Origin: a virus
Strand: one strand, 5' to 3'
Length of the DNA: 64,000 nt
IMG/VR virus record: IMGVR_UViG_3300020048_000085
The notes beneath the pieces are model-generated. The model saw only the letters and a program-made list of their open reading frames with translations, had not been told where the DNA came from and ran no database searches. Every line of letters starts with the position of its first letter. Position 1 is the first letter of the stretch. Position numbers and translations under genes: made by a program. Of the stretch, positions 3,313 to 61,828 are shown in pieces.

Positions 3313-3753
3313 TTATATATTGAATTTATTAACATCATAATAATATATAATATCATCATATGTCAAATTTTCAAACATAGCAACAACTTTATCATAATCA
3401 AACAATTTAATTTTTATTGTATCATATATCACGTATTCAACACCTCTTTCATGATGTTTATGCTCAATTTTTACTATTTTTTTAATATTATCTATTATAT
3501 AATCAATAATAAATCTATGTTTTTGTGAATCACCTCCTCGATAATTAGAAAATTCTACAATTATATCATCTTTTTGTTTTTTAAAATAAATTTCTGAATA
3601 TAAAAAACTACTATCTTTATTTTTCTCAAATCTAATACTTGTGCCTTTATATGCATAATAAACTTTATATCTTTGTCTTAAAAAATTAAACATAACTGTT
3701 ATTAAATCTACACAAAAAAAAGTACTCTCAAACAATTTAAACTTTTTTATCAT
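3313..3753 (-). CDS. Member of the N-terminal FKxFE paralog family (MIKKFKLFES... ...DVNKFNI)
   Basis: It has the shared N-terminal motif M-I-K-K-F-K-L-F-E and the shared C-terminal KFNI tail. Confidence 0.55.
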   Translation of the reverse strand: MIKKFKLFESTFFCVDLITVMFNFLRQRYKVYYAYKGTSIRFEKNKDSSFLYSEIYFKKQKDDIIVEFSNYRGGDSQKHRFIIDYIIDNIKKIVKIEHKHHERGVEYVIYDTIKIKLFDYDKVVAMFENLTYDDIIYYYDVNKFNI

Positions 3754-3762
3754 TATTAATTA

Positions 3763-4548
3763 TTAATTATTAATTATTTTATCAACATGAACATCACCTT
3801 TCATAATAACTTCAGATTCTTCTCCTCCAATAAATATAGCAACATCATCAAATAACACCTCTGAAACTAAAATTGTTTGTTTAGTTGAATATATTGGTTT
3901 AAATTGTTTTCCTCCAGTAAATATATATTTTGAAAATCTTTCTGCTTCATTTAAACTAGTTGTCCAACAAGAATATTCACTTTTAATATTTGGATTATAA
4001 TCACACTTCAGACCTCGATAAATTACAATTTTTTCTGGTATATTACCATCAAACATTTCGAATGCTGTTTTATAATTCCATTTATCAATATGTCTTGTTT
4101 TTGATATTTTATCTAATATATTAGTGAGTGCTCGTTGAGAATTAAAATGATCAACAATCAAATCACTTATTCTATCAAAAGATTTATCTATATTAGGGTT
4201 CTTATAACATACAAATAAACTATATGGTATTCTACTAATTTTGTATGATTTAGTATCATATTTTCTAAGCTCATTTTGTAATTTAAAAATATCACCAAAA
4301 GTTTTTACTCCAAAAAAATCATCAATTATCTTCTTACATTCAATTGTTGAGGTTATATATTCATTTCCAATACTAACACATGGAAACTTACTAAATGATT
4401 CCATACAATCAACACCCATTCTACTATCATTTATCCAATTTTTTATTAACATTTCTCCATTATAAACATAGTATAAAAAATACAACCAAGCAACATCACA
4501 ATATAATATCTCAGCCATTTTTTCAAATTTTTTAAATTCTATTATCAT
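3763..4548 (-). CDS. Putative mono-ADP-ribosyltransferase (R-S-E class) carrying the family N-terminal motif (MIIEFKKFEK)
   Basis: Ordered motifs are present: aromatic-Arg (VIYRG), an STS-like WTTSL, and GGEESEVIM (E-x-E) about 45 aa downstream. This is the R/STS/ExE triad of C3/iota/Alt-type ARTs. The call is by motif only. Confidence 0.45.
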   Translation of the reverse strand: MIIEFKKFEKMAEILYCDVAWLYFLYYVYNGEMLIKNWINDSRMGVDCMESFSKFPCVSIGNEYITSTIECKKIIDDFFGVKTFGDIFKLQNELRKYDTKSYKISRIPYSLFVCYKNPNIDKSFDRISDLIVDHFNSQRALTNILDKISKTRHIDKWNYKTAFEMFDGNIPEKIVIYRGLKCDYNPNIKSEYSCWTTSLNEAERFSKYIFTGGKQFKPIYSTKQTILVSEVLFDDVAIFIGGEESEVIMKGDVHVDKIINN

Positions 4549-4907
4549 TTTTTATTCTCTAATTTTTCATAAATTGAAGCTCCATATTTAGTATTGAATA
4601 TATCTTGTTTAGAAACAAAATAATCACCACTTGTAAATAAATAATCCAATCTAATATATTGAGCTAAGACTATTGATTTTTTAGATCCAGTCATCAAACT
4701 ATATCTTTTAGCAACATCAAACTCTGTAGTAAAAAATGTACCACTCTTAAATTTACCAGTATAAATAATCTTGTTAAAATTGTTTTTATTTGTACCATGA
4801 TATAAATAGATATAATAATTACCATCAATAACAATTTTATCTATACCACGTTTATTTATATTATCTAATAACATATCACTAATATAATCTTCAAATATCT
4901 TAATCAC
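4545..4907 (-). CDS. FKxFE-family protein (MIKIFEDY...) with a YHGT motif
   Basis: ATGA overlap with the downstream gene. LYHGTNKNNF resembles the H-G-[ST] nicotinamide-pocket motif of H-Y-E class ARTs and Tpt1/KptA enzymes. This is weak evidence. Confidence 0.4.
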   Translation of the reverse strand: MIKIFEDYISDMLLDNINKRGIDKIVIDGNYYIYLYHGTNKNNFNKIIYTGKFKSGTFFTTEFDVAKRYSLMTGSKKSIVLAQYIRLDYLFTSGDYFVSKQDIFNTKYGASIYEKLENKK

Positions 4908-5809
4908 ATGAAACTCTTTTTTTTAATTAATATATCAACATTTGATAAATAACCACTCTTAATATGAACATTACCATTATCTTCATATAATATATCTTCA
5001 TTCTCATATTCAAAATCAAAAATATATAAGTCATAATCATCTCTTGCTGCAGGTAAATTAATAAAATTATTATTTTTGCTTAAATACAAGTTATCATAAT
5101 CATATCCAATAACTAATTTTTCAATTTCACCATTTCTATTATCAAGTGGTATTATATTATCAACTAAACCAATATTTTTTATATTATTTGATTTTTTATA
5201 TCCTCTCCAATACAAACAATAACCATGATTTATAATTTTTATCTTATAATTTATAATACTATCAATCCAAGCATCATTTTTTTCAATTTTAATACCATCT
5301 TGAACATATATTTCACCAAAAATTTCCTTTATTTTTGGTATATATTCTTTAAAAAAACTAGGTAAATTTATTCTAGAATGATTAAAATGACCACCATCAC
5401 TATCAAACCAACCACAATGTTTCAAATGTTCAACTCGTTCTTTATTTATTATAAACTTATTAGTATATTTACGTATATTTGGAATCTTATTTGTTTTGAT
5501 TTGCTCTTCAAATTCTTGTAATCTTATCTTTTTTATTGAACCATAGCCTACCTCATTTGACGGATATGTAATTGGATTTATTTTAAACTTATCACTTAAT
5601 TTATCACCATCCAATTCCAATTTAAAAATAGAAACAGGTGAATCACCAATATAATAAGACATATTCTTATTTCTAGTTGTAGAAATATTTGAGAATTTAT
5701 ATGAACTCAACGAATTAGTACTCAATATATAATCACATTTCTCCAAATCAAAAATATGATATAATTTTCCTAATTTTTTACCTTCAAATAATTTAAAATT
5801 TGTAACCAT
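4904..5809 (-). CDS. FKxFE-family protein (MVTNFKLFEG...), 301 aa, function unknown
   Basis: It has the N-terminal family motif and an ATGA overlap with 4545..4907. A TATATATA-like element lies upstream of its start. Confidence 0.5.
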   Translation of the reverse strand: MVTNFKLFEGKKLGKLYHIFDLEKCDYILSTNSLSSYKFSNISTTRNKNMSYYIGDSPVSIFKLELDGDKLSDKFKINPITYPSNEVGYGSIKKIRLQEFEEQIKTNKIPNIRKYTNKFIINKERVEHLKHCGWFDSDGGHFNHSRINLPSFFKEYIPKIKEIFGEIYVQDGIKIEKNDAWIDSIINYKIKIINHGYCLYWRGYKKSNNIKNIGLVDNIIPLDNRNGEIEKLVIGYDYDNLYLSKNNNFINLPAARDDYDLYIFDFEYENEDILYEDNGNVHIKSGYLSNVDILIKKKSFM

Positions 5810-11388: not shown

Positions 11389-12102
11389 ATGATATTTATT
11401 GGATTAGATGTATCTAAAATTTCAACTGCTCTATGTATTGAAAAAAATGGAATAACTAAACTATATAGTTACTCTACTCAAAAAGATAATAATATTTGGG
11501 TTAAAGAAACAACATCATTTATTACTTATAGACATATTAAATATTCATATTTAGACGAACCTGATTATAGTAAATCAGAAATATTAAAATTACAAAACTT
11601 TGATGATGTAACAGACTTAATTATAAATGATATTTATGATAACGTCGGAATACTAGATAGTATCAGAATAGGAATAGAAGGATTCTCATATAATTCAAAA
11701 GGACCAATATTTGATTTGATAGAGTTTACCACTTTACTTAAACATAAATTATTACATAAATTAAATAAATATGGAGATATACAAATATTCGCTCCAATCA
11801 CACTTAAAACTGAAGCATGTAAAATGGCTTATAATCCAAGAATAGAAAAAAAAGGGGTTAGAGTAATAAAAGAAATTATTCATATAGAAAATGAAGAAGG
11901 TAAATGTGCAAAAGATTTTGATAAATGGGACATGCTTTACGCACTACTTAAAAGTAATATAGAATTAGAACTAAAAGAATGGGTATTTAATAATAAAGAT
12001 AATATAACAAAAATAAAAAAAGTACCTAAACCAATAGACGATGAAATAGACGCAATATTTCTAAAGGAAATAGTCAAAAGAATTTATTCAAAAAATAATT
12101 AA
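11389..12102 (+). CDS. RuvC-like (RNase H fold) Holliday-junction resolvase candidate
   Basis: The N-terminal MIFIGLDVS resembles the first acidic motif of RuvC, A22 and IS110-type DEDD nucleases. There is an internal GIEGFSY (Glu) and a C-terminal DDEIDAIFL (the D-A motif at the RuvC C-terminus). Confidence 0.4.
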   Translation: MIFIGLDVSKISTALCIEKNGITKLYSYSTQKDNNIWVKETTSFITYRHIKYSYLDEPDYSKSEILKLQNFDDVTDLIINDIYDNVGILDSIRIGIEGFSYNSKGPIFDLIEFTTLLKHKLLHKLNKYGDIQIFAPITLKTEACKMAYNPRIEKKGVRVIKEIIHIENEEGKCAKDFDKWDMLYALLKSNIELELKEWVFNNKDNITKIKKVPKPIDDEIDAIFLKEIVKRIYSKNN

Positions 12103-12246
12103 TATATAATACAAATAATTACGAGAAATATAAATTATATATATAATATATCATGATCTTGCATCTTTTTTATATTTATATGAGTATTAAGTAGTTGTAA
12201 AAATGTTAAATATCAACTTTATTGAGTATAATTTATATAAGATATT

Positions 12247-12456
12247 ATGTTATTAACCAAAGAAATAAAAATAAAAGTAAATTCAACAACATTTAAACAT
12301 TATAAGGAATGCGGATATGATTTTAAATGCGGAGAAGAAATAATAATAGATGTGAATCATTTAACCAAATCATCAGAATATAAAGTTAAAGTTAAATGCG
12401 ATGTTTGTAGTAGTGAAAAACAATTATCATATGGTAAATATTTAAAAAATATATGA
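12247..12456 (+). CDS. Small Cys-containing (zinc-ribbon-like) protein
   Basis: CGYDFKCGEE ... KCDVCSSEK give two Cys pairs within 69 aa. Confidence 0.35.
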   Translation: MLLTKEIKIKVNSTTFKHYKECGYDFKCGEEIIIDVNHLTKSSEYKVKVKCDVCSSEKQLSYGKYLKNI

Positions 12457-12485
12457 TTCTGGAAAAATAAAATTTAAATTTAAAA

Positions 12486-13388
12486 ATGTTTAAAGAAGGA
12501 AAAGAATATAAAATAAATAGTAAATACATAAAAGTATTTGGTCCTAAAATCAATGAAGAACAACAAATAGATCCAAATATAATACCAAATTTTCCTATAA
12601 ATAAACCAGTTAAATTTGATGTTGAGTTGATGAAAAAAGCAATTAAATATGGTTTAGTTATACTACTCTCATATCGTGGTGAAGATGATAAATGGCGTGG
12701 TGGTAGAGAAAGAACAGTTCAACCAATGGTACTAGGTTTAAATCTTAACACTAAGAATATGTTGTTGAGGGGATTTCACCTAGAGGGTTGGTCTGTATCT
12801 CAAAGAGCAGAAACAAAAAAAGTATGGAGATTATTTAAAACAGATAATATTATATCAATGACATTCACTGGAAATTTTTTCCGTATGCCACCAGTTTCCT
12901 ACAAGATGAACGATAGAATTATGACAGAGAAGATTTTAGCAAAGGCTGATTTTAATGATATAAGAAGAAACCAGAACACTTTGTTGAAAGGTGGACAAAT
13001 TCAAGCAGAAGAAGAAACAACTATCTCAAAAGAATCCGGAGGTGTAGTTAGCATTGAGATATCTAACTCTAATAGTCAAATCGATTTGAGATATCCATCT
13101 AAGAATTTACTTATAAATAAAAATAATTATAATCCAACTAGATTTTCTAAAGATTCTAGTACGCTTTCTATGAAATTTTCAGTTATGAAAAGTATGTTTG
13201 GAAATAAATATCTTGTCATTGTTGGTGCAATTGGTACTATTAATAGACAAGTTAAAGTATACGAAGGTAAAGTATTATTAGGTAATTATAGATGCATAAA
13301 ATCATTCTTAGGTTCAGATTTAGCTAACAATAAAATTGCTGATGGTAAGAATATTTTTGATTTGTATGTATTCAATAGAAAATTATAA
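12486..13388 (+). CDS. Hypothetical protein (300 aa)
   Basis: ORF only; no motifs recognised. Confidence 0.45.
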   Translation: MFKEGKEYKINSKYIKVFGPKINEEQQIDPNIIPNFPINKPVKFDVELMKKAIKYGLVILLSYRGEDDKWRGGRERTVQPMVLGLNLNTKNMLLRGFHLEGWSVSQRAETKKVWRLFKTDNIISMTFTGNFFRMPPVSYKMNDRIMTEKILAKADFNDIRRNQNTLLKGGQIQAEEETTISKESGGVVSIEISNSNSQIDLRYPSKNLLINKNNYNPTRFSKDSSTLSMKFSVMKSMFGNKYLVIVGAIGTINRQVKVYEGKVLLGNYRCIKSFLGSDLANNKIADGKNIFDLYVFNRKL

Positions 13389-13390
13389 TT

Positions 13391-13665
13391 ATGATAAAAT
13401 TATTTGAAGAATTAATTTAATAGAAGAACCTGAAAAAGATGAAATATTAATTTGTGAAATTAAAAATAATAACAAAATTATATTTATTATTAAAATTACG
13501 TCAATACCAACAATAAGTAAAGTATATCCAAAAAGTTTTAAATTTGATACTATAGACTTAACTGAAAATTATAATGCTGAAATTTATTATAATTATATAG
13601 ATAAGTATTTATTCTCTGTAAGTGGAATACATTGTGAATTATTATTTAGAATATTTAATTTATAA
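13391..13665 (+). pseudogene. Decayed member of the FKxFE/KKFNL paralog family
   Basis: It begins ATG ATA AAA TTA TTT GAA GAA (MIKLFEELI) and then stops. The region ends ...gaatatttaatttataa (RIFNL-stop-like), which mimics the family junction. There is no long ORF in between. Confidence 0.35.
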
Positions 13666-13700
13666 AATTAATATATAAGTATACAAAAAAAAATAAAAAT

Positions 13701-14081
13701 ATGAAATATTTAAAAACTTTTGAATATAATTTATCAAACAAATCAATTTATTATAAAATAATAATTGATGGTTCATTTGATAAATTTACAATTGCTCTTG
13801 AAAAATTGGGTATGTTAGAATCTTTTTTATTTGATTGGGATATAAATGATTTTGATGATATTGAAGTAGAGAGTAAATATTTATTTTCTAATGAATATAT
13901 ATATTTAGCAATTGCTAAAAGTGAATATAGTAATAGAAGATATATTACTGATTTTACTCCAACCAATTTCATTGTCAGAAGATATATTACTGATTTTCCA
14001 GATTCTATACAAAAATTTGAATATGGTGGTGAAATAAAAATAGAAGATTATGAAATAGATTCAAAAAAATTTAATTTATGA
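13701..14081 (+). CDS. FKxFE/KKFNL family paralog (MKYLKTFEYN ... SKKFNL)
   Basis: It has both the N- and C-terminal family motifs and an ATGA overlap with the next gene. A TATATA element lies about 25 nt upstream. Confidence 0.6.
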   Translation: MKYLKTFEYNLSNKSIYYKIIIDGSFDKFTIALEKLGMLESFLFDWDINDFDDIEVESKYLFSNEYIYLAIAKSEYSNRRYITDFTPTNFIVRRYITDFPDSIQKFEYGGEIKIEDYEIDSKKFNL

Positions 14082-14422
14082 AACACATAAGATTATTTGA
14101 AGAGTTAGAATCACAATATAAAGTAGGTGATTATGTGTTAATTAAATATATACCTAAATCTAAATCATTATTAGAATTAATGAAATTTGTAAATAATTCA
14201 ATAGGTAAAATGATGTTTATTGATGAACGTAGTGTTATTTTAGAATATGTTGATATACCAGATAATATAAAGCATTATTTTAATGATAAAAATGTTGGAA
14301 ATAAAAAAATTAAAAATTCTGCTTTTTTTTGGTATCACAATAGTATAATAAATAGATTAGCTACTGAAGATGAGATAAAAGAATTTAAAGTTAAAAAAGA
14401 TTTAAATAAATTTAATTTATGA
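14078..14422 (+). CDS. FKxFE/KKFNL family paralog (MKHIRLFEEL ... LNKFNL) with a KVGDYV small-barrel motif
   Basis: Family motifs at both ends, with ATGA overlaps on both sides. Confidence 0.6.
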   Translation: MKHIRLFEELESQYKVGDYVLIKYIPKSKSLLELMKFVNNSIGKMMFIDERSVILEYVDIPDNIKHYFNDKNVGNKKIKNSAFFWYHNSIINRLATEDEIKEFKVKKDLNKFNL

Positions 14423-14820
14423 AATATATAAAAACATTTGAAAATAAAGAAAAATTTATAAAAATGACAGATAAGAATAAACTCAATAGAAACATTTATT
14501 ATTATTTGTTGTATGTGGATTCAATTGAAAAATTTGACTTCGCATTAGATAAAATAGGTATAAAAGATGATTTTTATGATGATATATGGGGTGCACAAGT
14601 TAATATTGATGAATATATTATACCTAAATTAGAAAAAGATAAAAAAATATATTTGAGTGTAGATTATTTTATTGAAAATTTTGACGTTTTTAATCATGAA
14701 CCAAGTGATGAAAAATTAGTATCACTGAGAGATGATAATGATAGAAAATGTAAAATAATATATGGTGGAGAGATATCAGTATATGATTATGAAATTATAG
14801 CAAATAAATTTAATTTATGA
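14419..14820 (+). CDS. FKxFE/KKFNL family paralog (MKYIKTFENK ... ANKFNL)
   Basis: Family motifs and ATGA overlaps. Confidence 0.6.
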   Translation: MKYIKTFENKEKFIKMTDKNKLNRNIYYYLLYVDSIEKFDFALDKIGIKDDFYDDIWGAQVNIDEYIIPKLEKDKKIYLSVDYFIENFDVFNHEPSDEKLVSLRDDNDRKCKIIYGGEISVYDYEIIANKFNL

Positions 14821-15158
14821 AACATATTAGAAAATTTAATGAGAAGAGACGACTAAAGACAGGAGATTATGTTTTAGTTAAATTAGATACTTATACACAA
14901 TCAACTGATAGAATTATACAAGCAAAAGAATATATAAACACACATATTGGTAAGTTGATTAATATAAATAATACTAGACTTGATGATGTTCGTATTGAAT
15001 ACAGAGATGTACCTGAACACATAAGAAGCTATTTTGGAACTTCTAACAAAGATGAAAATGCTTATTATAGATCAGTTGATATTGATAAAATAGTTGAATT
15101 TGGTTCAACACCAGAAGAATTAGAAGTATTTTTACAATCAAAAAAATTTAATTTATGA
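14817..15158 (+). CDS. FKxFE/KKFNL family paralog (MKHIRKFNEK ... SKKFNL)
   Basis: Family motifs and ATGA overlaps. It carries the TGDYVLVK motif. Confidence 0.6.
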   Translation: MKHIRKFNEKRRLKTGDYVLVKLDTYTQSTDRIIQAKEYINTHIGKLININNTRLDDVRIEYRDVPEHIRSYFGTSNKDENAYYRSVDIDKIVEFGSTPEELEVFLQSKKFNL

Positions 15159-15502
15159 AACACTTAATATTATTTGAAGATTTAAAAAAATCATCACCAA
15201 AATATAAAGTTGGAGATTATGTTCATATTGATATGGAACCAGATTTTGATTATGATGTTTGTTTAGCAAAAATTGTTGATGTTGATAATAATGGATTTTT
15301 AATTGAACCAGAAGATAAAGAAAGTAATGATTTTAACGATTATATTAACAAATATAATCCATTTCCATATTCAGTTAAATTTTATAAAAATGGCTGGAAT
15401 GTCGAAGAAAATTTAATAGATAGATATTTAACTGAAGATGAAATTGTATATTTTAATTTTTTAATAAAACATGGAACAGAAATAAAAAAATTTAATTTAT
15501 GA
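15155..15502 (+). CDS. FKxFE/KKFNL family paralog (MKHLILFEDL ... IKKFNL)
   Basis: Family motifs and ATGA overlaps. It carries the KYKVGDYVHID motif. Confidence 0.6.
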   Translation: MKHLILFEDLKKSSPKYKVGDYVHIDMEPDFDYDVCLAKIVDVDNNGFLIEPEDKESNDFNDYINKYNPFPYSVKFYKNGWNVEENLIDRYLTEDEIVYFNFLIKHGTEIKKFNL

Positions 15503-15765
15503 GTAAACTAAGTAATGATATTCACAAAATGTTAGGATATCTTAAAATAATACAACAATATAATTTTTTTGCACAATTAGGAAACGAAGATGATATAGAT
15601 TATTTAAAAGACAAAGTAGATAATTTATATTATATTGATGATAATGAACAACTTATTAAAGATTTTGAATGGTGTGCAAATATGGTAAATATGCTTTATG
15701 ATGAAGTAGATTCAGACTTCAAAAAGAGATTATTAATTGAAGAAAATGAAAATATAGATAATTAA
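15499..15765 (+). CDS. Hypothetical acidic small protein (88 aa), last gene of the plus-strand array
   Basis: It is translationally coupled (ATGA overlap) to the preceding gene and is followed by a hairpin terminator. Confidence 0.45.
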   Translation: MSKLSNDIHKMLGYLKIIQQYNFFAQLGNEDDIDYLKDKVDNLYYIDDNEQLIKDFEWCANMVNMLYDEVDSDFKKRLLIEENENIDN

Positions 15766-15796
15766 AAAAGTCAGATTAAATCTGACTTTCTTTTTA
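15765..15796. terminator. Bidirectional intrinsic terminator
   Basis: Stem aagtcaga / tctgactt (15767-15789) with loop ttaaa, flanked by an A-run and a T-run. It lies between convergent genes. Confidence 0.6.
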
Positions 15797-16270
15797 TTTA
15801 CCATATCTTTCACCTGGATATGTATTCTTAATTTCTTTCCACATATCAAAAGAGCGTTTGAGTAAATCAATTTTATTATTAATAAAGTCTATCACACCAT
15901 CGTCTGTAGTTACATCAATATCAAAATGATCAATAACACCTTGTGGTATAGCATTTAAATATTGTTTTACACTACCAAAATAAAAATTGTCTCTATTATC
16001 AATTCTATATTTTTCAGCAGCATTAATTAATGATTCAATAAAATGTTGATCATGATGACCATTCAATTTATCTCCCATCAAATTTATTTTTCTTTCATCG
16101 TTCTTTTCTCTTTCAATATTATATGCAGTTTGAGTGATAGATGATGATGTTGGTAATTTATCAAAATCTTCATCTTTAATAGTTTTTTTATGTTCACCAC
16201 CAATATTACCACCTTGTGGAAATTTTATATACTCTTTTATATATTCACCAAAATCTACTATTTTTCTCAT
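15794..16270 (-). CDS. Hypothetical protein (158 aa)
   Basis: ORF only. Confidence 0.45.
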   Translation of the reverse strand: MRKIVDFGEYIKEYIKFPQGGNIGGEHKKTIKDEDFDKLPTSSSITQTAYNIEREKNDERKINLMGDKLNGHHDQHFIESLINAAEKYRIDNRDNFYFGSVKQYLNAIPQGVIDHFDIDVTTDDGVIDFINNKIDLLKRSFDMWKEIKNTYPGERYGK

Positions 16271-16300
16271 AATGTTATTTTTTTAAATTATATATTAATT

Positions 16301-16621
16301 TTATAAATTGAATTTATTTGTAGCTAATAATAAATCAATATCTTCAAATTTCATTATTTTCCAATTTTCTCTATTTGTCCATTCATTATCATGGTATTTA
16401 TGAATAACAAAATCTAATCTTTTATTAGCAGCATCAATAGAGTCGAAATATGATATATTATCAATATTAATATCAATATCATTAATATTTTTTACTGTTA
16501 TAAAATCTTCTAAACCATGTCTACATAATAATAAAATTAAATAAATTTGTTCTATTGGACGATGTAAAATTAACACATATTTTTCTTTTTTCTTGAAAAT
16601 ATTAAATCTTTCTATTATCAT
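16301..16621 (-). CDS. FKxFE/KKFNL family paralog (MIIERFNIFKK ... ATNKFNL)
   Basis: Family end-motifs. Confidence 0.55.
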   Translation of the reverse strand: MIIERFNIFKKKEKYVLILHRPIEQIYLILLLCRHGLEDFITVKNINDIDINIDNISYFDSIDAANKRLDFVIHKYHDNEWTNRENWKIMKFEDIDLLLATNKFNL

Positions 16622-16624
16622 AAG

Positions 16625-17239
16625 TTATAAATTAAATTTATTTGCATCAAATAAATATGAATATTCTTTTTTTATTCTATAATGTATTTTCTCATCTTTA
16701 AATATTTTAATAAACTCAGAAGTATGCATTTCAATAAACACCTTTTGAAAATTATAATCAGTATTATAACTAAAATAATTAAAATTAGATATATCAGCAT
16801 TATTTTCTAATAAATATATAGCAACATCCCAATAATTATTTAATGCTGATGTCATTAGTGGTGATACATTACTATCATTTGATATATCTATATTTGCGCC
16901 ATTCTCAACCAACAATTTAACTATATCTAAATATCCATTATGAGCTGCTACATATAATGGAGTTGCATTAATACTATTGAAACTATTCACATTAGCATGA
17001 TATTTAATCATCAATTTAACTAATTTGATATCAGCAATATATACAGATAATGATAACATATTACCATAACAATTATTGTCATCATATATATTTGGATTAG
17101 CTCCATTTTTTAATAAATATTCAACTTTTTTTAAATTTGGTTTATTTAAACTAGCCACACTATTAATAAAATATAATAGATAGTCAATTAAATATTTAGT
17201 TTTATCTATATATTTTTCAAATTGCTTAATATATTTCAT
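16625..17239 (-). CDS. Ankyrin-repeat protein that is also a member of the FKxFE/KKFNL family (MKYIKQFEKY ... ANKFNL)
   Basis: It has at least three canonical ANK repeats, for example TPLYVAAHNGYLDIVKLLVENGANIDISNDSNVSPLMTSALNNYWDVAIYLLENNADI. Confidence 0.7.
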   Translation of the reverse strand: MKYIKQFEKYIDKTKYLIDYLLYFINSVASLNKPNLKKVEYLLKNGANPNIYDDNNCYGNMLSLSVYIADIKLVKLMIKYHANVNSFNSINATPLYVAAHNGYLDIVKLLVENGANIDISNDSNVSPLMTSALNNYWDVAIYLLENNADISNFNYFSYNTDYNFQKVFIEMHTSEFIKIFKDEKIHYRIKKEYSYLFDANKFNL

Positions 17240-17583
17240 AGATTGAATTTCTTTAAGTTTTTATTTATTTCTAATTCTTCTAATGTCTTTCCAGTTGCAA
17301 CAACATCAGAATATTTAAAACTTTTTATTCCACAATTATTTTTTTTGTCAATGAAAAACATTTTTAAATCATCTGGAATATTATCATATTTAACATAAAT
17401 TCTATACCATTGGTTTGATGGTTTTGCATAATCATCAAGTAAAAAACTATCAATTATTCCAATTGTATTATTTATAAAATTTCTCAAATCAATTAATATT
17501 TCACTCGGATAATTCGTTAATATATAATCACCAACAGAAAATTCTGGTATCATATTTTCAAATATTTTAAATTGTGTTATCAT
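17236..17583 (-). CDS. FKxFE/KKFNL family paralog (MITQFKIFEN ... LKKFNL)
   Basis: Family motifs and ATGA overlaps. Confidence 0.6.
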   Translation of the reverse strand: MITQFKIFENMIPEFSVGDYILTNYPSEILIDLRNFINNTIGIIDSFLLDDYAKPSNQWYRIYVKYDNIPDDLKMFFIDKKNNCGIKSFKYSDVVATGKTLEELEINKNLKKFNL

Positions 17584-18005
17584 ATATTAAATTTTTTTGA
17601 ATTTGTAATATATTTTGGTGTTTTATTTATAGCACGTTTAAATACATAAAATACATATTTAGTTATTGGATCACCAATATTATCTATTCTTGCATTATCT
17701 AAAATATATTTTATTTTATCATATAATAATATATCTTTTTCAAATTCTACGATTATTAATTCAATAGCATATTTTTTTACTTCATTGCGTATTCTATCGT
17801 CTATTTTATTATTTCCTTTTTTCCATGTGTTTGAACTGTAATATAAATTATATAATATAGAAAATATATAACTAAATTCTTCTGGTACCTTAAATATATT
17901 TTGAATAAATGATGTATCTTTTTTATACATTCTATCATAATAATTTAAATAATAATCAACCATAGATTGATCATATTTTTCAAATATTTTAAATTGTGTT
18001 ATCAT
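17580..18005 (-). CDS. FKxFE family paralog (MITQFKIFEK ... SKKFNI)
   Basis: Family motifs and ATGA overlaps. Confidence 0.6.
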   Translation of the reverse strand: MITQFKIFEKYDQSMVDYYLNYYDRMYKKDTSFIQNIFKVPEEFSYIFSILYNLYYSSNTWKKGNNKIDDRIRNEVKKYAIELIIVEFEKDILLYDKIKYILDNARIDNIGDPITKYVFYVFKRAINKTPKYITNSKKFNI

Positions 18006-18436
18006 AAATTAAATTTTTTAGCGTTCTCAATTAAAATCAACTTGTTTATTATATCTTTTTTTCTAGGTGGAATATAACCATAAATTGTAAATGGTGAATT
18101 AACATCAACTGAGTGAATAATATGTTCATCATTTTTTAAAATTAAATCTAATGATACAAACTCTTTTACTCTTTTTTTAGCTGTTCCTGTATAACCAATA
18201 CCACATCGTTCAACTTTACTAATAATACCATTATGTTTATTTTCATAATCAACAAGTACCTTTTTAATATTATTAAAAGAATATTTACTATAAAATTTAA
18301 CATTAGTACCAGGAATCAATAAATCAGTTAGAAATTTTTTAATTTTTGTATAACTACCATTATAATATTCTAATAATGTATTTAACATAAATGTTATTTC
18401 TTCTTGTGTATCAAATGAATCAAATTTAGTAATCAT
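18002..18436 (-). CDS. FKxFE/KKFNL family paralog (MITKFDSFDT ... AKKFNL)
   Basis: Family motifs and ATGA overlap. Confidence 0.6.
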   Translation of the reverse strand: MITKFDSFDTQEEITFMLNTLLEYYNGSYTKIKKFLTDLLIPGTNVKFYSKYSFNNIKKVLVDYENKHNGIISKVERCGIGYTGTAKKRVKEFVSLDLILKNDEHIIHSVDVNSPFTIYGYIPPRKKDIINKLILIENAKKFNL

Positions 18437-18442
18437 ATAATT

Positions 18443-18826
18443 TTATTTTTTTCTTAAATATGAAAAAACAACATCAAAAAATATTAGTTTAATACAAAAT
18501 GCTATTATAACCCATAAGAATGAAAAATTTAATACTATTATAATAGAAGCAATAATCATTAATAATTCAGATAAAAACCAAAATAAATGCCACGCATCAG
18601 TAAAAATAACAAATATAGTAGTACTACCTAAAAATTTTTCACCACTATGTGGATCATTATTTTTATATTTATTTAATGAACCTAATCCTTGCTCCCAAAA
18701 ATTTGGATTTAAATGATATTTCAAATATAATTTAGATTTATAAAATAAATTAGGAGATGATGATAAATCAGTAATTGATTTTGCAACTCCAGATAGGAAC
18801 AATAGTATTATAATTAATATTATCAT
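18443..18826 (-). CDS. Predicted small integral membrane protein (at least 3 hydrophobic helices)
   Basis: MIILIIILLFLSGVAKS... followed by a long hydrophobic C-terminal stretch. It is embedded in the paralog array. Confidence 0.4.
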   Translation of the reverse strand: MIILIIILLFLSGVAKSITDLSSSPNLFYKSKLYLKYHLNPNFWEQGLGSLNKYKNNDPHSGEKFLGSTTIFVIFTDAWHLFWFLSELLMIIASIIIVLNFSFLWVIIAFCIKLIFFDVVFSYLRKK

Positions 18827-18828
18827 AT

Positions 18829-19248
18829 TTATAAATTGAATTTTTTTGTTTCTTTATTTATATTTATTTCATCTATGATATCTTTAATATCATCAGGAAT
18901 AATACCATAAATATTCATTGGAGAATTTGTGTCTACATCATGTTTATATCTTATTCCTTTTAATTTTATTGTTAAAAAAATATAGTTAAATTCTTTATTA
19001 AAACCATAACCAAATCCCCTCACAACACCTTTATGTTGTTTATTTGAGTGCATGAAATAATTTAATCCTTTAATATCTTCTGTGCATTTTTTACATTCGA
19101 ATTTAATAACATTATTTTTAATTTCAAGTAATTTAAATATAAAATCACTTATAGATTCATTATCACCATTAAAATAACCAATAATATCATTTATTGTTAA
19201 TGTTACTTTATTTCCTGTATTTTCAAATAATTTGAATTGAGTTATCAT
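18829..19248 (-). CDS. FKxFE/KKFNL family paralog (MITQFKLFEN ... TKKFNL)
   Basis: Family motifs. The element ttatatatac lies immediately upstream of its ATG on the minus strand. Confidence 0.6.
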   Translation of the reverse strand: MITQFKLFENTGNKVTLTINDIIGYFNGDNESISDFIFKLLEIKNNVIKFECKKCTEDIKGLNYFMHSNKQHKGVVRGFGYGFNKEFNYIFLTIKLKGIRYKHDVDTNSPMNIYGIIPDDIKDIIDEININKETKKFNL

Positions 19249-19302
19249 ACAGGTATATATAATTATTTAAAATTATTTTTTAATGTTTAATTTAATGAAT
19301 AA

Positions 19303-20322
19303 TTAAAATAATTCCTTTAAAATATGTGTTCTTGATGCATAATTATATGCAACTTTTTCATTTTTTATAAAATCTTTTTTATTATTATATTTAGATGCGA
19401 CTTCTAAACATAATTCTTTATTCCAAAATAATCTACCATTTTTCATATGTGAACACACATCATCTATCCAATTACTTCTAGAACATCTTAAATATGATCC
19501 AGTTGAATTTTCATAAAAATCTTTTTTACAATTATATTTTAACGCTTCTTCTTTACATTTATTTTTTGTCCATTTTATAATACTACCACCTACACCTCCG
19601 CCTTTTATCTCATTTAATATATTATAATTGTTATTTCTATATTCTTCAATTTTCTCATCTTCCATTTTTTTAATAATATCAATATCTAAATAATCTGTCA
19701 ATTGTTTAAATATATAATTTACTTTTGTTTTGTGTTTATATTTGTATACTTGACTTTTTTTGTTGGTTTTGTGATAATAATTTCTAATATTTATATCATA
19801 TGTTAACCCTATATACACAGAATTATCATCAAATTCATAAATATATAAGCATCTTCTTTTTAAATTTCCACGATATATCATATGTTCACAAATTTCATCT
19901 ATCCATTTATTTTTGTGTGATATACTATATGCTGACATAGAATTAAATTTAAAATCGCTTTTATTATCATATTTTAATGCTTCTTCTTTACATCGTTCAA
20001 AATTCCAATAGTTTTTACATTTTTGATATTCTATCATATGCTCACAAATTTCATCCAACCAGTTATTTTTTCTTGAATATTCATAATATTTTTTGGAATT
20101 TTTTTGAAAATCAGTTCTTTTTGAATATTTATTTGCTTCATTTTTACACTCTATTTTAGAATATATTTTACAATTTTTATGCTTCATGTGTGAGCAAACA
20201 TCATCTAAAATATGATTGAAATATGCATAATTATATGCATAATTATCATTATTCATAAAATCTTGTTTAAATTTATATTTTAGTGCTATTTCTTGACATA
20301 ATTCTTTTGTGTATTTTATCAT
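19303..20322 (-). CDS. GIY-YIG endonuclease with tandem Cys/His-containing repeats of about 40 aa (W..E.C..HM / YxKCKE..LKY modules); the start is placed at the internal Met (MIKYTKELCQ), although the longest ORF extends to 20358
   Basis: GIY-YIG core YIYEFDDNSVYIGLTYDINIRNYYH, flanked by repeats such as KNKWIDEICEHM. The 20322 start is chosen because an RHH ORF occupies 20325..20498 in another frame, mirroring the paralogous cassette at 61809..63182. Confidence 0.55.
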   Translation of the reverse strand: MIKYTKELCQEIALKYKFKQDFMNNDNYAYNYAYFNHILDDVCSHMKHKNCKIYSKIECKNEANKYSKRTDFQKNSKKYYEYSRKNNWLDEICEHMIEYQKCKNYWNFERCKEEALKYDNKSDFKFNSMSAYSISHKNKWIDEICEHMIYRGNLKRRCLYIYEFDDNSVYIGLTYDINIRNYYHKTNKKSQVYKYKHKTKVNYIFKQLTDYLDIDIIKKMEDEKIEEYRNNNYNILNEIKGGGVGGSIIKWTKNKCKEEALKYNCKKDFYENSTGSYLRCSRSNWIDDVCSHMKNGRLFWNKELCLEVASKYNNKKDFIKNEKVAYNYASRTHILKELF

Positions 20323-20324
20323 AA

Positions 20325-20498
20325 TTATAATTTTATTTTTGATGTATTTATTCCACATTTATTAAAATAATCTAGCATTGCAAATTCTATATATTTTGAC
20401 TTGTTTGTAGTACTATCTAAAATCAAATCGTGTAATTCTGGAGACATAGAAATAGAAATTCTTATTTTTCTATCTTCTTCTTTTTTTAATGTTTTCAT
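20325..20498 (-). CDS. Small ribbon-helix-helix (CopG-like) protein immediately upstream of the GIY-YIG gene
   Basis: A 57-codon ORF (MKTLKKEEDRKIRISISMSPELHDLILDSTTNKSKYIEF...KIKL) with a beta-strand/helix-helix pattern. It is a paralog of the ORF at 63024..63182 and is too short for the ORF track. Confidence 0.35.
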   Translation of the reverse strand: MKTLKKEEDRKIRISISMSPELHDLILDSTTNKSKYIEFAMLDYFNKCGINTSKIKL

Positions 20499-20792: not shown

Positions 20793-23700
20793 ATGAAAAT
20801 TGTACACTTGGCTGATGTTCATATCAGAAATATTGAAAGACATGATGAATACAATACTATTTTTAGTAAAATAGTAAATAAATTAAAAGAATTAAAACCA
20901 GATAGAATAGTTATAGTTGGTGATTTGTTTGAAAGTTATATTGAAATTTCAAATGAAGCACAAATTATTGCAGGATTTTTTTTGACTGAATTATCTAAAA
21001 TTGCTAAAGTTATAATTACTCGTGGTAATCATGATATTCGTAAAAAGAATATAAACAGAGTAGATAGTATAGAAACAGTTATAAAATTGCTCAATAATAA
21101 AAATATTAATTACTATGATAAAACTGGTTTTTATGATGATGAAGATGATTTTGTTTGGGTTGTATATGAACACGCAGACAAATTAAATAATCCTTGGTCA
21201 AATAAGAAAAAAGAAGATGATAAAATATATATTGGTTTATTTCATGATCCAATTTTAAACGTCACGTCTAATACAGGTAGAATATTTAATGATTCTGCTA
21301 AATATAAAAATATTAATTATTTTAAAAATAATAATTTTTTGATGATTGGTGATATCCATAAACGCCAATTTTTAAGAGAAAATAAATCTGCTGCATATTG
21401 TGGTTCAACAATTCAACAAACATTTGGAGAAACAGTTGAAAAACATGGTTTCCTATTATGGGATATAAAATCATCTACTGATTTTGATATTACTGAATGT
21501 GATATTAAAAATGAATATACATTAATAAATTTATTTGTTGATGAAAATTCTGATTATGATAACTTAAATTTATCTGCAGATAATATTGGATTATATCCTG
21601 AATTTAAAGTACATTGGAAAGATTATTCTTCTAATATTAACACAGTAAATGAAAAAAAGATACGAGATTATATTAAAGAAAAATTTAATACAACTCAAGT
21701 AATTTTTGATAAAACTTATTTATATACAGATGTTTTATCATCTAAAATGCTTTCAGAATCTATTGATTTGACAGATGCTCAAACACAAAGAGAAATATTT
21801 GAAGAATATTTAAAAGAGCAAAAATATAAAACAGATGATATTGAATCAATACTTAATATTGATGATATTATTAATAGTAGAATTCAATTAACAGAACAAT
21901 TAAAAAATAATGAATGGAGTATTGATAAATTTTGGTTCAGCAATTTTAAATCTTATGGTGATGATAATGTTGTTGATTGGAGTGATATTTCAGGTTTAGT
22001 ACAAATTCATGGAGAAAATCAAGAAGGTAAAACTACAATTCTTGATGCTCTTATGTATATACTATATGGTAAAACAACCACAACATTAAGTCCAGAAAAA
22101 TTTGGAGATAATAGATATATAAACAATAAAAGGGATTTAAATAGTGTTAGTGGTGGAGCAATAATTAGTACTAATGGTAATAAATTTGTTATTCAAAGAA
22201 GCACAGAAAGAGTTTGGAATAAAAATAAAACTGCTTTAAGTGGTTGTCCAACTGTGTTAGATTTTTATAAGAGTGATGTTATTTGTGAAGAAAATAAGAT
22301 AACTGGTGAGCTTAAAAGTACAACACAAAAAGAATTAGATATAATATTAGGTGATTTGAAAGATTTCATTAGACTATCATTCACAAATGCTGATAATTTA
22401 AATGATTTATTATCTGAAACTAGAAGTGTGTTTATGGATAGTATTATTAGAGATGCTGGATATGATATATTTGAGACTAAATTAAATGAATTTAAGGAAT
22501 ATAAGAAAGAATTAACAGAAGAAAAATTAATAATTAATATTCAAGATTCTGAATTAACAATAGCTGATTTGAAATCTGATATTGATAGTAAGAGAGAAGA
22601 TATAAAGATTAATGATATTCAAATAATAGAATTTGTTGTTGATTTAAAAACAAATAATAAAAGTAGAGATAATTTAAATAAAAATTTAAATAATATTGAT
22701 TCTTCTATGATTAATTTTGATGAGGATTTGAATTTAAATTCAATTGAAAATTACAAAGATAAAATTGAAGAAGCGAAAATACAAACAACTATTTTAAATA
22801 GAGAAATTGATAAATTACCAGATAATTTTGATCCAACTAAATTAAATGAGTATAAAATTAAGTTAAAACAAACAAACAATAAAATATCTGAAAGGAAAGA
22901 TGAAATATCAAATCTTAGAAGATCATTAACAGAATCAGACAATAAAATAGATAAGGTAGATTCTAAAATAGTAGAATTGAAACAATCTGAAATTAAAAAG
23001 ATTTCTTTGAAAATTAGTGATAATGAATTAAATATTGAAGTTATTAAGAACAAAAAAGAGAATATAATAAAAGATGAATTAAAACAATTAACATCATCTA
23101 TTCAAAAAATTGAATTGGATAAAAGTGAAATAACATCTCAAATGAAACTATTACAACGAGATGGTGTAAATTCTAAAAAGTCGAATGATGAATTAGATAA
23201 AGAAATTGAAACCTTTAGAGATTCAAAATCTTGTCCAAGTTGTGGTCGTGATTATGATAAAAATGATCCAAAATATTCAGAGCACATATTACATTTAGAA
23301 GAAAAAATTAAAAGTCTTGAAAATAAAAAAGATGCTAATGATTTAATAATTCAAAAAAGTCTAAGTGAATATAATAAATTGAAATTGTCTATATCTGATT
23401 TTGATGATAAAATATCAAAATTAAAAGATAATAAAGATGATATAATAAAAGGAGTTTACTCAGAAGATATTCTAACTAAATTGAAAGTTGTTGGTAGTAG
23501 TAACCAATTAAAACAAGATAATATTGATTTAAATATATTAATAAATAATATAGAAAATGATAAATTTGAAAATTTAGATTCATTAAAAGAAAATATTGAA
23601 AAAGGTAATAAATTAAAAGAAAATATTGAAAAAAGTAAATCAGATACATTATTAGTCATAAAAAATATTGAATCAGAATTAAAAAATTTTGATATAGATG

Positions 23701-25700: not shown

Positions 25701-26855
25701 ATGGTAATAAACGTAAAGAGTGAGACTGCAATGTCTGGATTTTATATTATATTTAAAGGATCAACTATGAATGAAAAACCTGGTTGGTATGGAATTAGTC
25801 ACCTATGTGAACATATTCTTTGTAAGGCTATATTTCATTTACAAGATACATATCAACAAAAAAATATAAAATGGAATGCATATACTTCGGTAGATACTGT
25901 AGTTTTTTATATGACAGGGATTGATAGACACATAAACAAATATAAAAATGATTTTTTAAATTTATTATTAGATTTTAAACCTACACAAAAACAATTGGAT
26001 AATGAAAAGAAAATTGTTTTAGAAGAGTATAAAATGAGTTTCAATTCACAAATTGAATCTCACTATTTTAATTTACAGAGAAAGATGTTAAGTTATTATA
26101 ATCCTATTGGACTCAGATCTGATATTGAAAATATAACATTACAAGATTGTAATGATTATTTAGATTTATATTTTAAGAATCCAACAAAAATAATAAATGT
26201 ATCAAAATTTAATGATTTTGAAACAGATATAAAATTCAAAGTTGAGATAGATGTTAAACCATTTGAATTTAAAATAAATGATAATTTGTATATTATAACA
26301 TCTGACGATAATACAGATGTACCTAAAGGTATGATACCATTAGAAATTATCACAGAATTTAAAAATAAAGTTAGTATAATTGATGTCTCAACTATGCTTA
26401 CAAAAGATTTTGCATATGCATCATTTGTGTGTGAGATGTTAAGTTCAGGTTTAAATTCTCCATTATATAAAGAGGTTAGAGAAAAATTAGGATTAGTTTA
26501 TTACATAAGTTGTTCATTAGATAAATTAAATGATAAATCTTGTTCAATAAGTATTATCACTAACACATCTAAAAATAATATTGAACGTGTACAACATGAG
26601 ATAAAGAATATATTACAAAACAAAGAAATATATTTAACTCAAGAAAGATTTGATATCATAAAAGATAAGCAACTCACAAAAATTGAAGAAAATGAGATTT
26701 TAAATAATAATATTTCTAAATATATGGAAAATCCTGAATGGATGATTGAAAATATTATAAACACTATAACATTAGATGATGTGTATAGAGTGGTTGATGA
26801 ATATCTAAATTGGGATAATATGTATAAATCTGTAGATATTAATGAATTTTCTTAA
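25701..26855 (+). CDS. M16-family (insulinase/pitrilysin/MPP-like) zinc metallopeptidase
   Basis: An inverted zinc-binding motif HxxEH in the typical context GISHLCEHILCK, close to the N-terminus. The size is consistent with one M16 active unit. Confidence 0.55.
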   Translation: MVINVKSETAMSGFYIIFKGSTMNEKPGWYGISHLCEHILCKAIFHLQDTYQQKNIKWNAYTSVDTVVFYMTGIDRHINKYKNDFLNLLLDFKPTQKQLDNEKKIVLEEYKMSFNSQIESHYFNLQRKMLSYYNPIGLRSDIENITLQDCNDYLDLYFKNPTKIINVSKFNDFETDIKFKVEIDVKPFEFKINDNLYIITSDDNTDVPKGMIPLEIITEFKNKVSIIDVSTMLTKDFAYASFVCEMLSSGLNSPLYKEVREKLGLVYYISCSLDKLNDKSCSISIITNTSKNNIERVQHEIKNILQNKEIYLTQERFDIIKDKQLTKIEENEILNNNISKYMENPEWMIENIINTITLDDVYRVVDEYLNWDNMYKSVDINEFS

Positions 26856-58838: not shown

Positions 58839-58988
58839 TTATATATACATAAAATATAATAACGTAGATGGAAATTTATAATTTTAAAGAATATAACGAA
58901 TATGTTCCAAATGAATTTTATATAACCAACACAGAATATAGAGATATATTAAAATATATGGAAAATTCAGAATTATATAAATTGAATA

Positions 58989-59816
58989 TTGATGCTAATA
59001 AATTTAACTTATAATATGAATAAAAAAATTAAAAATTGGATTTCTTTCATTTTAGAACAACAAAATAATAGTATTAATTTTTCAATATTTGATTGGGATG
59101 ATAATATTTTAATTATGAACACACCTTTGCATTTACAACATTTTGAAAATGGTAGATGGATAAATAAAGATGTATCAATTCAAGAGTTTTCCAATATTCG
59201 TTTAAAATATCCAGATAATTATGTTGATAATTCAGAATGGAAAGCTGATAAAAATTCTTTCATTGAGTTTACTGATTGTGGAACAAGAGTAGAAAATGTT
59301 TTTTTAGATGATGTAAAGGTTGCAATAAAAAATAAAGAATTTGGTCCATCTTGGACAGAATTTATTGACACTTTAAAAAATGGTAACTTATTTGCAATAA
59401 TAACAATTAGAGGACATGAATCAAATTCAATAAGAAAAGCAATTAGACATATTATTGACTATGTTTTAGAACCTAATATAAAAGAACAATTAATTGAAAA
59501 TATTCAAAGATATAATAATCTATTTAAAAACAAATCAATTGATTTAATTGAACAATATTTAGATTGTTGTTATTTTATCGGATTGATGTCACAAGAATTT
59601 AAAGATGAATATAGTTATTCTCCTGTTGGAAATAAACTAAATGAAGGTAGACAAGACGCAATTAATAAATTTAGTAACTATGTTAAATCTATTTATCCAA
59701 ATGCTACAAAAGAAGTATTTGTGAACATGGAGAAATCATTGAATTTTCCTGAAATACAATACACTAGAAGTACTTCTGATAATAAGATTCCTATCGGAGT
59801 AAGAGTAAAAATATAA
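58989..59816 (+). CDS. Hypothetical protein (275 aa), weak HAD-phosphatase-like N-terminal motif
   Basis: SIFDWDDNIL resembles HAD motif I (hhhDxDx[TV]L), but with N in place of T/V. A later IITIRGHE segment follows. The assignment is weak. Confidence 0.35.
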   Translation: MMLINLTYNMNKKIKNWISFILEQQNNSINFSIFDWDDNILIMNTPLHLQHFENGRWINKDVSIQEFSNIRLKYPDNYVDNSEWKADKNSFIEFTDCGTRVENVFLDDVKVAIKNKEFGPSWTEFIDTLKNGNLFAIITIRGHESNSIRKAIRHIIDYVLEPNIKEQLIENIQRYNNLFKNKSIDLIEQYLDCCYFIGLMSQEFKDEYSYSPVGNKLNEGRQDAINKFSNYVKSIYPNATKEVFVNMEKSLNFPEIQYTRSTSDNKIPIGVRVKI

Positions 59817-61794: not shown

Positions 61795-61828
61795 AAAAAC
61801 GTGGTGTATTATGCACCACGTTTTTTAT
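61795..61828. terminator. Bidirectional intrinsic terminator between ligA and the convergent GIY-YIG gene
   Basis: Stem aacgtggtg / caccacgtt followed by T6. Confidence 0.6.

Follow-up and report, generated by a model that had tools for sequence, protein, structure and literature searches.

Repeated gene junctions in hypervariable viral arrays as a likely by-product of a protein family with conserved terminal peptides

The internal proteins of phage T4 vary widely and have nothing but a capsid-targeting sequence in common (PMC3012670; PMC8442874). This sequence, MKTYQEFIAE, is cleaved off after loading, and the proteins that carry it are highly basic (PMC8442874). Variable loci of T4-type phages also contain PeSLs, mobile promoter and stem-loop cassettes located in the hyperplastic regions of the genome (PMC2839356, Arbiol et al. 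2010; PMC4122927, Comeau et al. 2014). PeSLs flank non-essential open reading frames (ORFs) of undefined function, and insertions, deletions and replacements occur between them (PMC2839356). Here, we analyzed a stretch of 64,000 nucleotides from the IMG/VR virus record IMGVR_UViG_3300020048_000085 (hereafter, the window), in which the small genes of two arrays, one on each strand, are linked to their neighbours by a repeated junction. The arrays are best placed with a known kind, in which T4-related phages carry hypervariable arrays of accessory genes and the gene products have a terminal peptide in common. What is new in them is a bipartite signal, composed of an N-terminal peptide (the head) and a C-terminal peptide (the tail), carried by an unusually large undescribed family. 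We consider it likely that the repeated junctions are a by-product of this protein family and its conserved terminal peptides, and not a DNA element.

The window has a GC content of about 21% and its genes are densely packed. The 15-mer AAATTTAATTTATGA has six exact matches in it, as compared to 0.03 expected from shuffles, at 14067, 14408, 14806, 15144 and 15488 on the plus strand and at 18002 on the minus strand. When up to two mismatches are allowed, 21 sites are found against 11.6 expected. A K-F-N-[L/I] C-terminus is present on 13 ORFs, of which five are consecutive on the plus strand (13701-15502), six lie on the minus strand (16301-19248) and two are elsewhere. The claim of an earlier, sequence-only reading that almost every array gene ends in KFNL or KFNI was thus borne out, as was the recurrence of the junction on both strands. 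In eight of the 13 ORFs the stop and start codons overlap as ATGA, while the other five end in TAA without an overlap. The genes stand head-to-tail and co-directional within each array, and where they overlap the last codon (NNA) and the TGA stop together form the next ATG, so that the DNA of a tail and of the following head recurs as a junction of about 25 nt. As the sequence-only reading had stated, a single junction encodes both the end of one protein and the start of its successor. The gene after the junction starts with MKH or MKY in the plus-strand array, as had been stated, but with MITQF as well as MKY in the minus-strand array. The range of 14060-15520 first assigned to the repeats covers the plus-strand half of the array, which extends well beyond it, with the minus-strand half lying outside. 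The motifs are absent from three ORFs located within the array region (15499-15765, 15794-16270 and 18443-18826).

The sequence-only reading took the junction for a DNA-level module that would allow cassette shuffling. On this account, about 25 nt are kept as a portable recombination site that shuffles gene bodies, for which the PeSL cassettes offer a real analogue. The identical 15-mer at five plus-strand junctions speaks for such a module, as do the presence, absence and replacement of genes exactly between junctions in related genomes and a 43-nt junction pair of 98% identity (both described below), and T4-type phages provide a precedent in which short repeated cassettes recombine (PMC2839356). 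However, the synonymous sites argue against it. Among 255 non-redundant relatives, which were not picked by the search pattern, the minor synonymous codons of the tail occur at or above background (AAC 37% versus 11%, p = 1e-26; TTC 21% versus 11%; TAC 16% versus 8%), and the synonymous sites of the head vary just as freely, while the peptides are fixed. Synonymous variation with conserved peptides is the very pattern that the sequence-only reading had named as contrary to a DNA module. When residue conservation was counted over 352 non-redundant members, K5 (96%), E8 (97%), the tail K (96%) and the tail N (100%) were near-invariant, and the swaps that occur in the tail (F/Y 59/40, L/I 65/32) are conservative at the protein level. 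These results indicate that purifying selection acts on the terminal peptides and leaves the synonymous sites free. Meanwhile, the rare codon AAC is threefold over background at the invariant tail Asn, with the same trend for Phe and Tyr; this excess could reflect translational accuracy at a critical residue or the avoidance of long A/T runs.

The identity of the plus-strand junctions can be explained by codon bias. The codon usage of the window (AAA 0.90, TTT 0.89, AAT 0.88, TTA 0.67) predicts AAA TTT AAT TTA for 47% of K-F-N-L tails, or about 64% when an A is required at the third position of the last codon to form the ATG, and this string is used by seven of the 11 KFNL tails in the window. 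Among all 13 window tails, TTC occurs in four, AAC in one and CTA in one. By the same arithmetic, all five plus-strand junctions would be identical with a chance of about 0.1, and their identity therefore needs no DNA-level explanation. Furthermore, the tail persists without a downstream gene and the head without an upstream gene. The tail is present in 93% of the head-bearing small ORFs that are followed by a co-directional gene starting at -4 to +15 nt, and is kept in 84% of those without such a gene; the head is also found on the first genes of arrays and on proteins that lack a tail. The high-identity core of the junction repeats spans only about 20-32 nt, which also counts against a DNA cassette. 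Taken together, the DNA cassette is largely refuted as the cause of the conservation, and we regard it as an unlikely explanation, although the short identical junctions may incidentally aid illegitimate or short-homology recombination.

Three observations weigh against a purely peptide-level account. First, the A at the end of the last tail codon is also found in front of TAA stops (100 of 110), a small DNA-level footprint of the overlap arrangement. Second, one junction pair in the minus-strand array (17555-17597 and 17977-18019), the exception to the short core, is 98% identical over 43 nt between unrelated bodies, and the synonymous sites of its heads are all identical. Codon-bias arithmetic, with the Thr codon frequency assumed, gives this identity a chance of about 0.06, and the pair may be a trace of a recent junction-level duplication or conversion. 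Third, the Lys and Asn codons of the tail fit the A-rich leader that is seen genome-wide.

The last point also bears on the possibility that the tail DNA is kept as an RNA element, an A/U-rich, G-free leader for initiation or re-initiation independent of a Shine-Dalgarno (SD) sequence, with the peptide being incidental. An SD-like motif is lacking upstream of all 94 window genes, whose leaders consist of 53-72% A at positions -20 to -4. The Lys and Asn codons of the tail are A-rich, its last codon nearly always ends in A, and the tail is somewhat commoner with a downstream gene, as would be expected of such an element. On the other hand, the variation is concentrated at wobble positions, where C is tolerated, and the Asn is fixed at 100%. 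The tail is also mostly kept without a downstream gene, the first genes of the arrays have quite different leaders, and the TTT at -8 to -6 conflicts with the genome-wide preference for A. We therefore hold an RNA element to be very unlikely.

The overlaps themselves are a feature of the family. A 4-nt overlap is present in eight of 14 family genes as compared to five of 80 other window genes (Fisher p = 2.5e-5), and at 476 of 732 tails across the loci collected below. This enrichment confirms the overlaps that the sequence-only reading had described; translational coupling, which it had inferred from them, is plausible, given the enrichment and the lack of SD-like motifs. The ATGA overlaps would couple translation by re-initiation in a system without SD sites. 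ATGA overlaps are ordinary in phage and bacterial operons; in the present arrays the codons that flank them are fixed as well, since a conserved peptide is encoded at either end of a gene. A fusion by -1 frameshifting at the AAAAAAT run was considered and rejected, as the downstream frame has a TAA two codons before the ATG. A scan for sigma-70 promoters yielded no more than the shuffle expectation, and the T4 late-promoter motif TATAAATA was found 49 times against 46 expected, which is uninformative in DNA of 21% GC. The comparison with moron arrays, in which each gene has its own promoter and terminator, did not hold: the genes overlap by 4 nt with no promoter or terminator units between them, and a single hairpin terminator closes the plus-strand array.

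The arrays and the related genes of the window are composed of the following features, where L127, L129 and L130 denote loci of related genomes and GDYV denotes a subfamily of cores.

13391..13665 (+): frameshifted family pseudogene, with the head MIKLFEELI followed by two stops in one frame and the body in another
13701..15765 (+): plus-strand array of five head/tail family genes and one trailing 88-aa gene, ATGA-joined throughout in the ORF map, with a hairpin terminator directly downstream
13701..14081 (+): family member, 126 aa, MKYLKTFE...SKKFNL; first array gene, preceded by non-coding DNA, with a body related to 14419-14820
14067..14081 (+): junction AAATTTAATTTATGA, which comprises the K-F-N-L codons, the stop and the ATG that overlaps it; further copies, all identical, at 14408-14422, 14806-14820, 15144-15158 and 15488-15502
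14078..14422 (+): family member, 114 aa, MKHIRLFE...NKFNL; SH3-like barrel plus helices (AlphaFold2), GDYV subfamily by alignment
14419..14820 (+): family member, 133 aa, MKYIKTFE...NKFNL; absent at the corresponding place in L127 and L129/L130
14817..15158 (+): family member, 113 aa, MKHIRKFN...KKFNL; GDYV subfamily by alignment
15155..15502 (+): family member, 115 aa, MKHLILFE...KKFNL; GDYV subfamily, homologues 68% identical in L127 and 60% in L130
15499..15765 (+): trailing 88-aa gene with neither head nor tail; ATGA overlap with the last array gene in the ORF map
15764..15792 (both strands): bidirectional hairpin terminator-like site closing the plus-strand array; two such sites found against 0.4 expected
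16301..16621 (-): family member, 106 aa, MIIERFNIF...NKFNL; last gene of the minus-strand array, TAA end, no downstream overlap
16625..17239 (-): family member, 204 aa, MKYIKQFE...ANKFNL; ankyrin-repeat core (Pfam Ank_2, 4.8e-27)
17236..17583 (-): family member, 115 aa, MITQFKIFE...KKFNL; GDYV subfamily, tail codons AAA TTC AAT CTA
17580..18005 (-): family member, 141 aa, MITQFKIFE...KKFNI; ORF map
18002..18436 (-): family member, 144 aa, MITKFDSFD...KKFNL; body related to 18829-19248
18443..18826 (-): hydrophobic 127-aa ORF in the minus-strand array, without head or tail and not a family member
18829..19248 (-): family member, 139 aa, MITQFKLFE...KKFNL; first gene of the minus-strand array, TAA end
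3313..3753 (-): family member outside the main array, 146 aa, MIKKFKLFE...NKFNI; TAA end, no downstream gene
3763..5809 (-): two larger head-only proteins without a tail, 3763-4548 (MIIEFKKFE) and 4904-5809 (MVTNFKLFE)
39367-39837 and 50653-51780 (-): further head-only proteins, from the ORF map
58868..59014 (+): 48-aa ORF ending ANKFNL (Asn encoded by AAC), with an atypical head, far from the arrays

The plus-strand array (13701..15765) is probably one transcription unit; the hairpin site at 15764-15792 separates it from the convergent gene 15794-16270 on the minus strand. No Pfam, NCBIfam or PHROG match was obtained for the trailing 88-aa gene, and no Pfam or PHROG match for the head-only proteins 3763-4548 and 4904-5809. 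Altogether, the window contains at least 12 intact family members and one pseudogene. The latter, already noticed as a degraded copy in the sequence-only reading, was confirmed: its body of 85 codons ends in RIFNL and a stop, in a frame that differs from that of the head.

The gene content of the arrays differs between related genomes. The flanking gene 12486-13388 and its homologue in L129 are 94% identical in protein and 90% in DNA, as compared to 55-68% for the array homologues; that of 13701-14081 in L129 is 55% identical. In L129/L130, three intact family genes occupy the place of the pseudogene 13391-13665, an extra gene follows the 13701 homologue, and one unrelated 107-aa member stands in place of both 14419-14820 and 14817-15158, while the homologues of 14078 (68% identical) and 15155 (60%) are retained. 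In L127, the 15155 homologue directly follows the 14078 homologue. The gene-level turnover at the junctions is therefore real, as the sequence-only reading had predicted for bodies between junctions, and the arrays are hypervariable, with whole genes gained, lost or replaced. In this respect they resemble PeSL regions, where short repeats likewise flank variable ORFs with insertion, deletion and replacement between the repeats. However, PeSLs are intergenic, consist of a sigma-70-like promoter and a stem-loop, and are conserved as DNA, whereas the junction lies in coding sequence, is free of hairpins and is conserved at the level of the peptide.

Across the family, the head consensus M-K-Y/H-I/L-K-x-F/Y-E is present in 280 of the 352 non-redundant members, and an alternative register, M-I-T-x-F-K-I/L-F/Y-E, in 35. 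The tail consensus is [A/T/S]-[N/K]-K-F/Y-N-L/I. The members have a median length of about 115 aa and are mostly acidic, with unrelated, fast-evolving cores. The median pI of the cores is 5.04, with 76% below 6; the pI of the window members ranges from 4.5 to 9.3, and their bodies fall into several unrelated groups in alignments. Pfam searches with 71 long members yielded 19 with ankyrin repeats and about eight with leucine-rich repeats (LRR), in addition to single members with methyltransferase, DnaJ zinc-finger and other domains. Beside these and the SH3-like barrel, many cores are of orphan types. Cellular ankyrin homologues lack the terminal peptides, and among the relatives of 16625-17239 the head and tail are shared only by the protein P0200, which is 65% identical to it. 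The terminal peptides are thus portable across unrelated cores.

This contrast between cores and termini also bears on the idea that the gene ends are alike merely because the genes are young tandem copies. Clear neighbouring paralogues do exist (13701/14419, 18002/18829 and the four GDYV genes). Nevertheless, the cores have diverged beyond recognition or adopt different folds, while the termini stay constant over 352 members and over thousands of clusters from many contigs. This difference in conservation refutes duplication as the explanation, and we give it almost no credence.

AlphaFold2 models of two members with different folds were examined. The 14078-14422 product is modelled as an SH3-like barrel (pLDDT 81.5) in which residues 1-11 score below 50 and the final block about 51, and that of 16625-17239 as an ankyrin solenoid (pLDDT 82.6, core above 90), with residues 1-5 below 50 and the last residues at about 52; such low values are common at chain ends and are weak evidence of disorder. 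A Foldseek search of the SH3-like member against the PDB returned weak eL21-like matches only, with no functional lead. The models are relevant to a structural clasp, in which the head and tail of one chain would pair, possibly through a Glu-catalysed Lys-Asn isopeptide bond, and staple or cyclise the protein. The near-invariance of K5, E8, the tail K and the tail N would suit a clasp, and we take this set to be the same as in the Lys-Asn isopeptide chemistry of pilins and HK97. In both models, however, the termini are not brought together and have low confidence, and the termini of an ankyrin solenoid are at opposite ends of the molecule. In addition, many proteins have a head without a tail, and the members of one lineage carry one or two extra residues after the tail. 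A clasp is therefore highly improbable.

The extra residues are found in L003 (5704-10336), a region of a 501-kb JGI contig, where the tails read KKYNIGL, KKYNIAL and KKYNIL. This lineage keeps an ATGA or GTGA overlap, and its members include one with an ART-PolyVal/DUF3990 domain and another with ankyrin repeats. In the proteins P0064 and P0192, two and three family units are naturally fused into a single chain. Their internal tails are decayed (SKLQVN, KQYGL and KKYGL) and their internal heads are truncated or lack the Met, while the terminal tail is kept. A second family of 73-92-aa proteins is encoded at 52370-52591, 52581-52814, 55588-55866, 55844-56083 and 2381-2635, and also at L177 (4080-4624). 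These proteins have an N-terminal K-(V/I)-G-D-x-V motif like that of the GDYV cores and a K-L-x-K-(I/L)-N-type C-terminus but no head or tail, and may be an untagged version of the same SH3-like domain.

Judged from sequence searches, this is a very large, undescribed phage protein family. A profile of the GDYV subfamily matched 63 unnamed proteins from metagenomes, almost all of which carry this head and tail, and an exhaustive HMMER search with this subfamily alone gave 2,915 cluster representatives (50% identity) at E <= 1e-3, with 1,415 found at the stricter cut-off of E <= 1e-10. For a distribution scan, we searched IMG/VR contigs and the GTDB species-representative genomes with the junction DNA pattern. 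At least 120 stretches of IMG/VR viral contigs matched, several of the contigs being 160-330 kb long. In the bacterial and archaeal genomes of GTDB, the pattern occurred in five places, of which one was family-like. This one family-like gene, in L131 (CAYVSY010000054.1), sits on a contig of 5.7 kb and 25% GC that was assigned to a Muribaculaceae metagenome-assembled genome; either the contig is from a phage and was put into the wrong bin, or it hints weakly at the host. In 1.13 Mb of loci with 2,033 ORFs, the tail is present on 784, the head on 811 and both on 640, numbers that are enriched because the loci were picked for containing a junction. About 40 consecutive members are encoded on one 531-kb contig. 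The family is confined to AT-rich uncultivated viral contigs. Pfam and PHROG searches with ten window members returned nothing except ankyrin, and no Pfam, PHROG or NCBIfam model covers the family. Neither a megablast search with 12000-20000 nor a tblastn search with the 17236-17583 member (E <= 1) matched any of 50,697 phage records, and a literature search for the tail strings and related descriptions gave nothing relevant and no paper on the family.

Other family-bearing contigs carry T4-like genes. A Portal_T4 match (3.7e-63) and a UvsW-like helicase (UvsW_N) lie next to family genes, and in L167 and L177 the family genes are interspersed with those for a capsid protein with a gp23-like N-terminus and a protease-scaffold fusion. 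The latter, a 790-812-aa protein directly downstream of the T4-like portal (L167 12394-14832 and L177 12320-14692), appears from its sequence to join a prohead protease to a coiled-coil scaffold that contains about 14 Y-S-E-Y-(L/I)-A-E-N-L-D repeats. An origin from a giant eukaryotic virus was rejected, because T4-like genes for portal and capsid, UvsW, NusG and the dense gene overlaps speak against it.

As to function, the two terminal peptides, if flexible, would serve as short linear recognition tags for docking or sorting, and would deliver a varied collection of binder or effector domains to a single shared partner. In its general form, this reading holds that a lineage of large T4-related phages uses a bipartite address tag to send a huge, rapidly turning-over binder/effector library through one common route. 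The route would be either prohead loading, with co-injection to follow, or attachment to one machine, for example a protease or a chaperone; we regard this reading as possible, though doubtful. The version we prefer, still as a tentative possibility and by analogy with the T4 capsid-targeting sequence, is that the tags sort the members into the prohead for co-injection. Next comes a version that is more doubtful still, in which the tags tether all members to the same machine of the host or the phage, for instance a protease or an unfoldase. Reading the tail as PDZ-type or as a strict C-terminal degron was also considered and rejected, being weakened by the L003 lineage, with its residues after the tail.

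Like the T4 internal proteins, which are the closest precedent, the members are diverse, fast-evolving small accessory proteins of hypervariable loci. They also share an N-terminal peptide of about 10 aa that starts with M-K and has an aromatic residue and a Glu within the first 10 positions. The T4 internal proteins belong to T4-type phages, and the family-bearing contigs that carry T4-like genes match them in this, while the contig of the window shows no T4 hallmark. The family is orders of magnitude larger than the set of T4 internal proteins, and its genes stand in overlapping arrays.

Several points weigh against targeting in the manner of T4. The head differs from MKTYQEFIAE; only M1, K2, F7 and a nearby Glu are shared, and the match is too short and too divergent for a claim of homology. 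The cores are mostly acidic, as opposed to the highly basic T4 internal proteins, and the C-terminal tail has no T4 counterpart. The T4 prohead protease cleaves after Glu in an [L/I]-x-E context. The P3 position before E8 is I or L in 76% of the 35 minor-register members, but T, K, L or R in the major register. Tens of members per 64 kb are many for virion cargo. Finally, the T4-likeness rests on other family-bearing contigs: PDB sequence, NCBIfam and PHROG searches of large or neighbouring window ORFs revealed no T4 or other structural hallmark and no partner.

The tethering version fits the ankyrin and LRR cores equally well, being analogous to viral ankyrin/F-box families. In the ankyrin/PRANC (F-box-like) families of poxviruses, a short conserved terminal motif connects many binders to one machine. 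The present family resembles them in its variable ankyrin binders with a short conserved terminal motif, and in being a large, variable viral family. It differs in that its tags are 5-8 residues long, stand at both ends and occur in a bacteriophage lineage; no Pfam match to a PRANC or F-box domain was found among the 71 long members. The cargo-loading peptides of encapsulins, short flexible terminal peptides that send unrelated cargo inside an HK97-fold shell, offer a parallel for prohead sorting. They are likewise short terminal peptides on unrelated proteins, but their sequences differ and there is no encapsulin here.

Further genes were noted in the remainder of the window. A 1249-aa ORF (20793-24542, plus strand) fuses an SbcD/Mre11-type phosphoesterase (residues 1-189) to an SbcC/Rad50-type ATPase, and a Clp/Hsp100 two-ring ATPase is encoded at 27552-30095 (plus strand), in a richer patch with a local GC content of 29%. 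The latter matches the ClpB model in two pieces, skipping part of the middle domain, and the ClpA model in one, with all scores below the curated cut-offs; its best matches in the phage collection include two uncultured phage records of 635-642 kb. The cell-like genes in this viral context encode an M16 peptidase (25701-26855), an S1-domain protein (37478-38638), a NusG-like factor (38765-39283, minus strand), an SPFH/Band 7 protein (42329-43831, local GC 31%) and a NAD-dependent DNA ligase (59916-61787). A RuvC-like resolvase is also present. L048 is syntenic with the window, its SbcCD and M16 peptidase being 62% and 69% identical. Three genes on the minus strand are likely mobile endonuclease-type genes: 34811-36355, a DUF7487 protein matching the homing-endonuclease phrog_3339 at 1e-98; 61809-62792, a GIY-YIG protein; and 19303-20358, a 351-aa protein that adjoins the minus-strand array, has internal W-I/L-D-E-I/V-C-x-H-M repeats and matches phrog_20046. 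A tRNA scan of the window found none.

The case shows that a strong codon bias and stop/start overlaps can together mimic a DNA module, and provides a clean example of a DNA repeat that, on the reading we favor, proves to be a protein-level signal. The tag pair consists of peptides of 5-8 residues that could be tested for the loading of foreign proteins, as has been done for the T4 capsid-targeting sequence. If the tags are sorting or docking signals, then in large uncultivated phages thousands of proteins could be singled out by sequence alone as candidates for injection or for action on the host, which would supply a ready catalogue of anti-defence or host-takeover effectors. The address-tag reading, if true, would reveal a phage effector-library system whose scale and bipartite terminal signal have not been described before.

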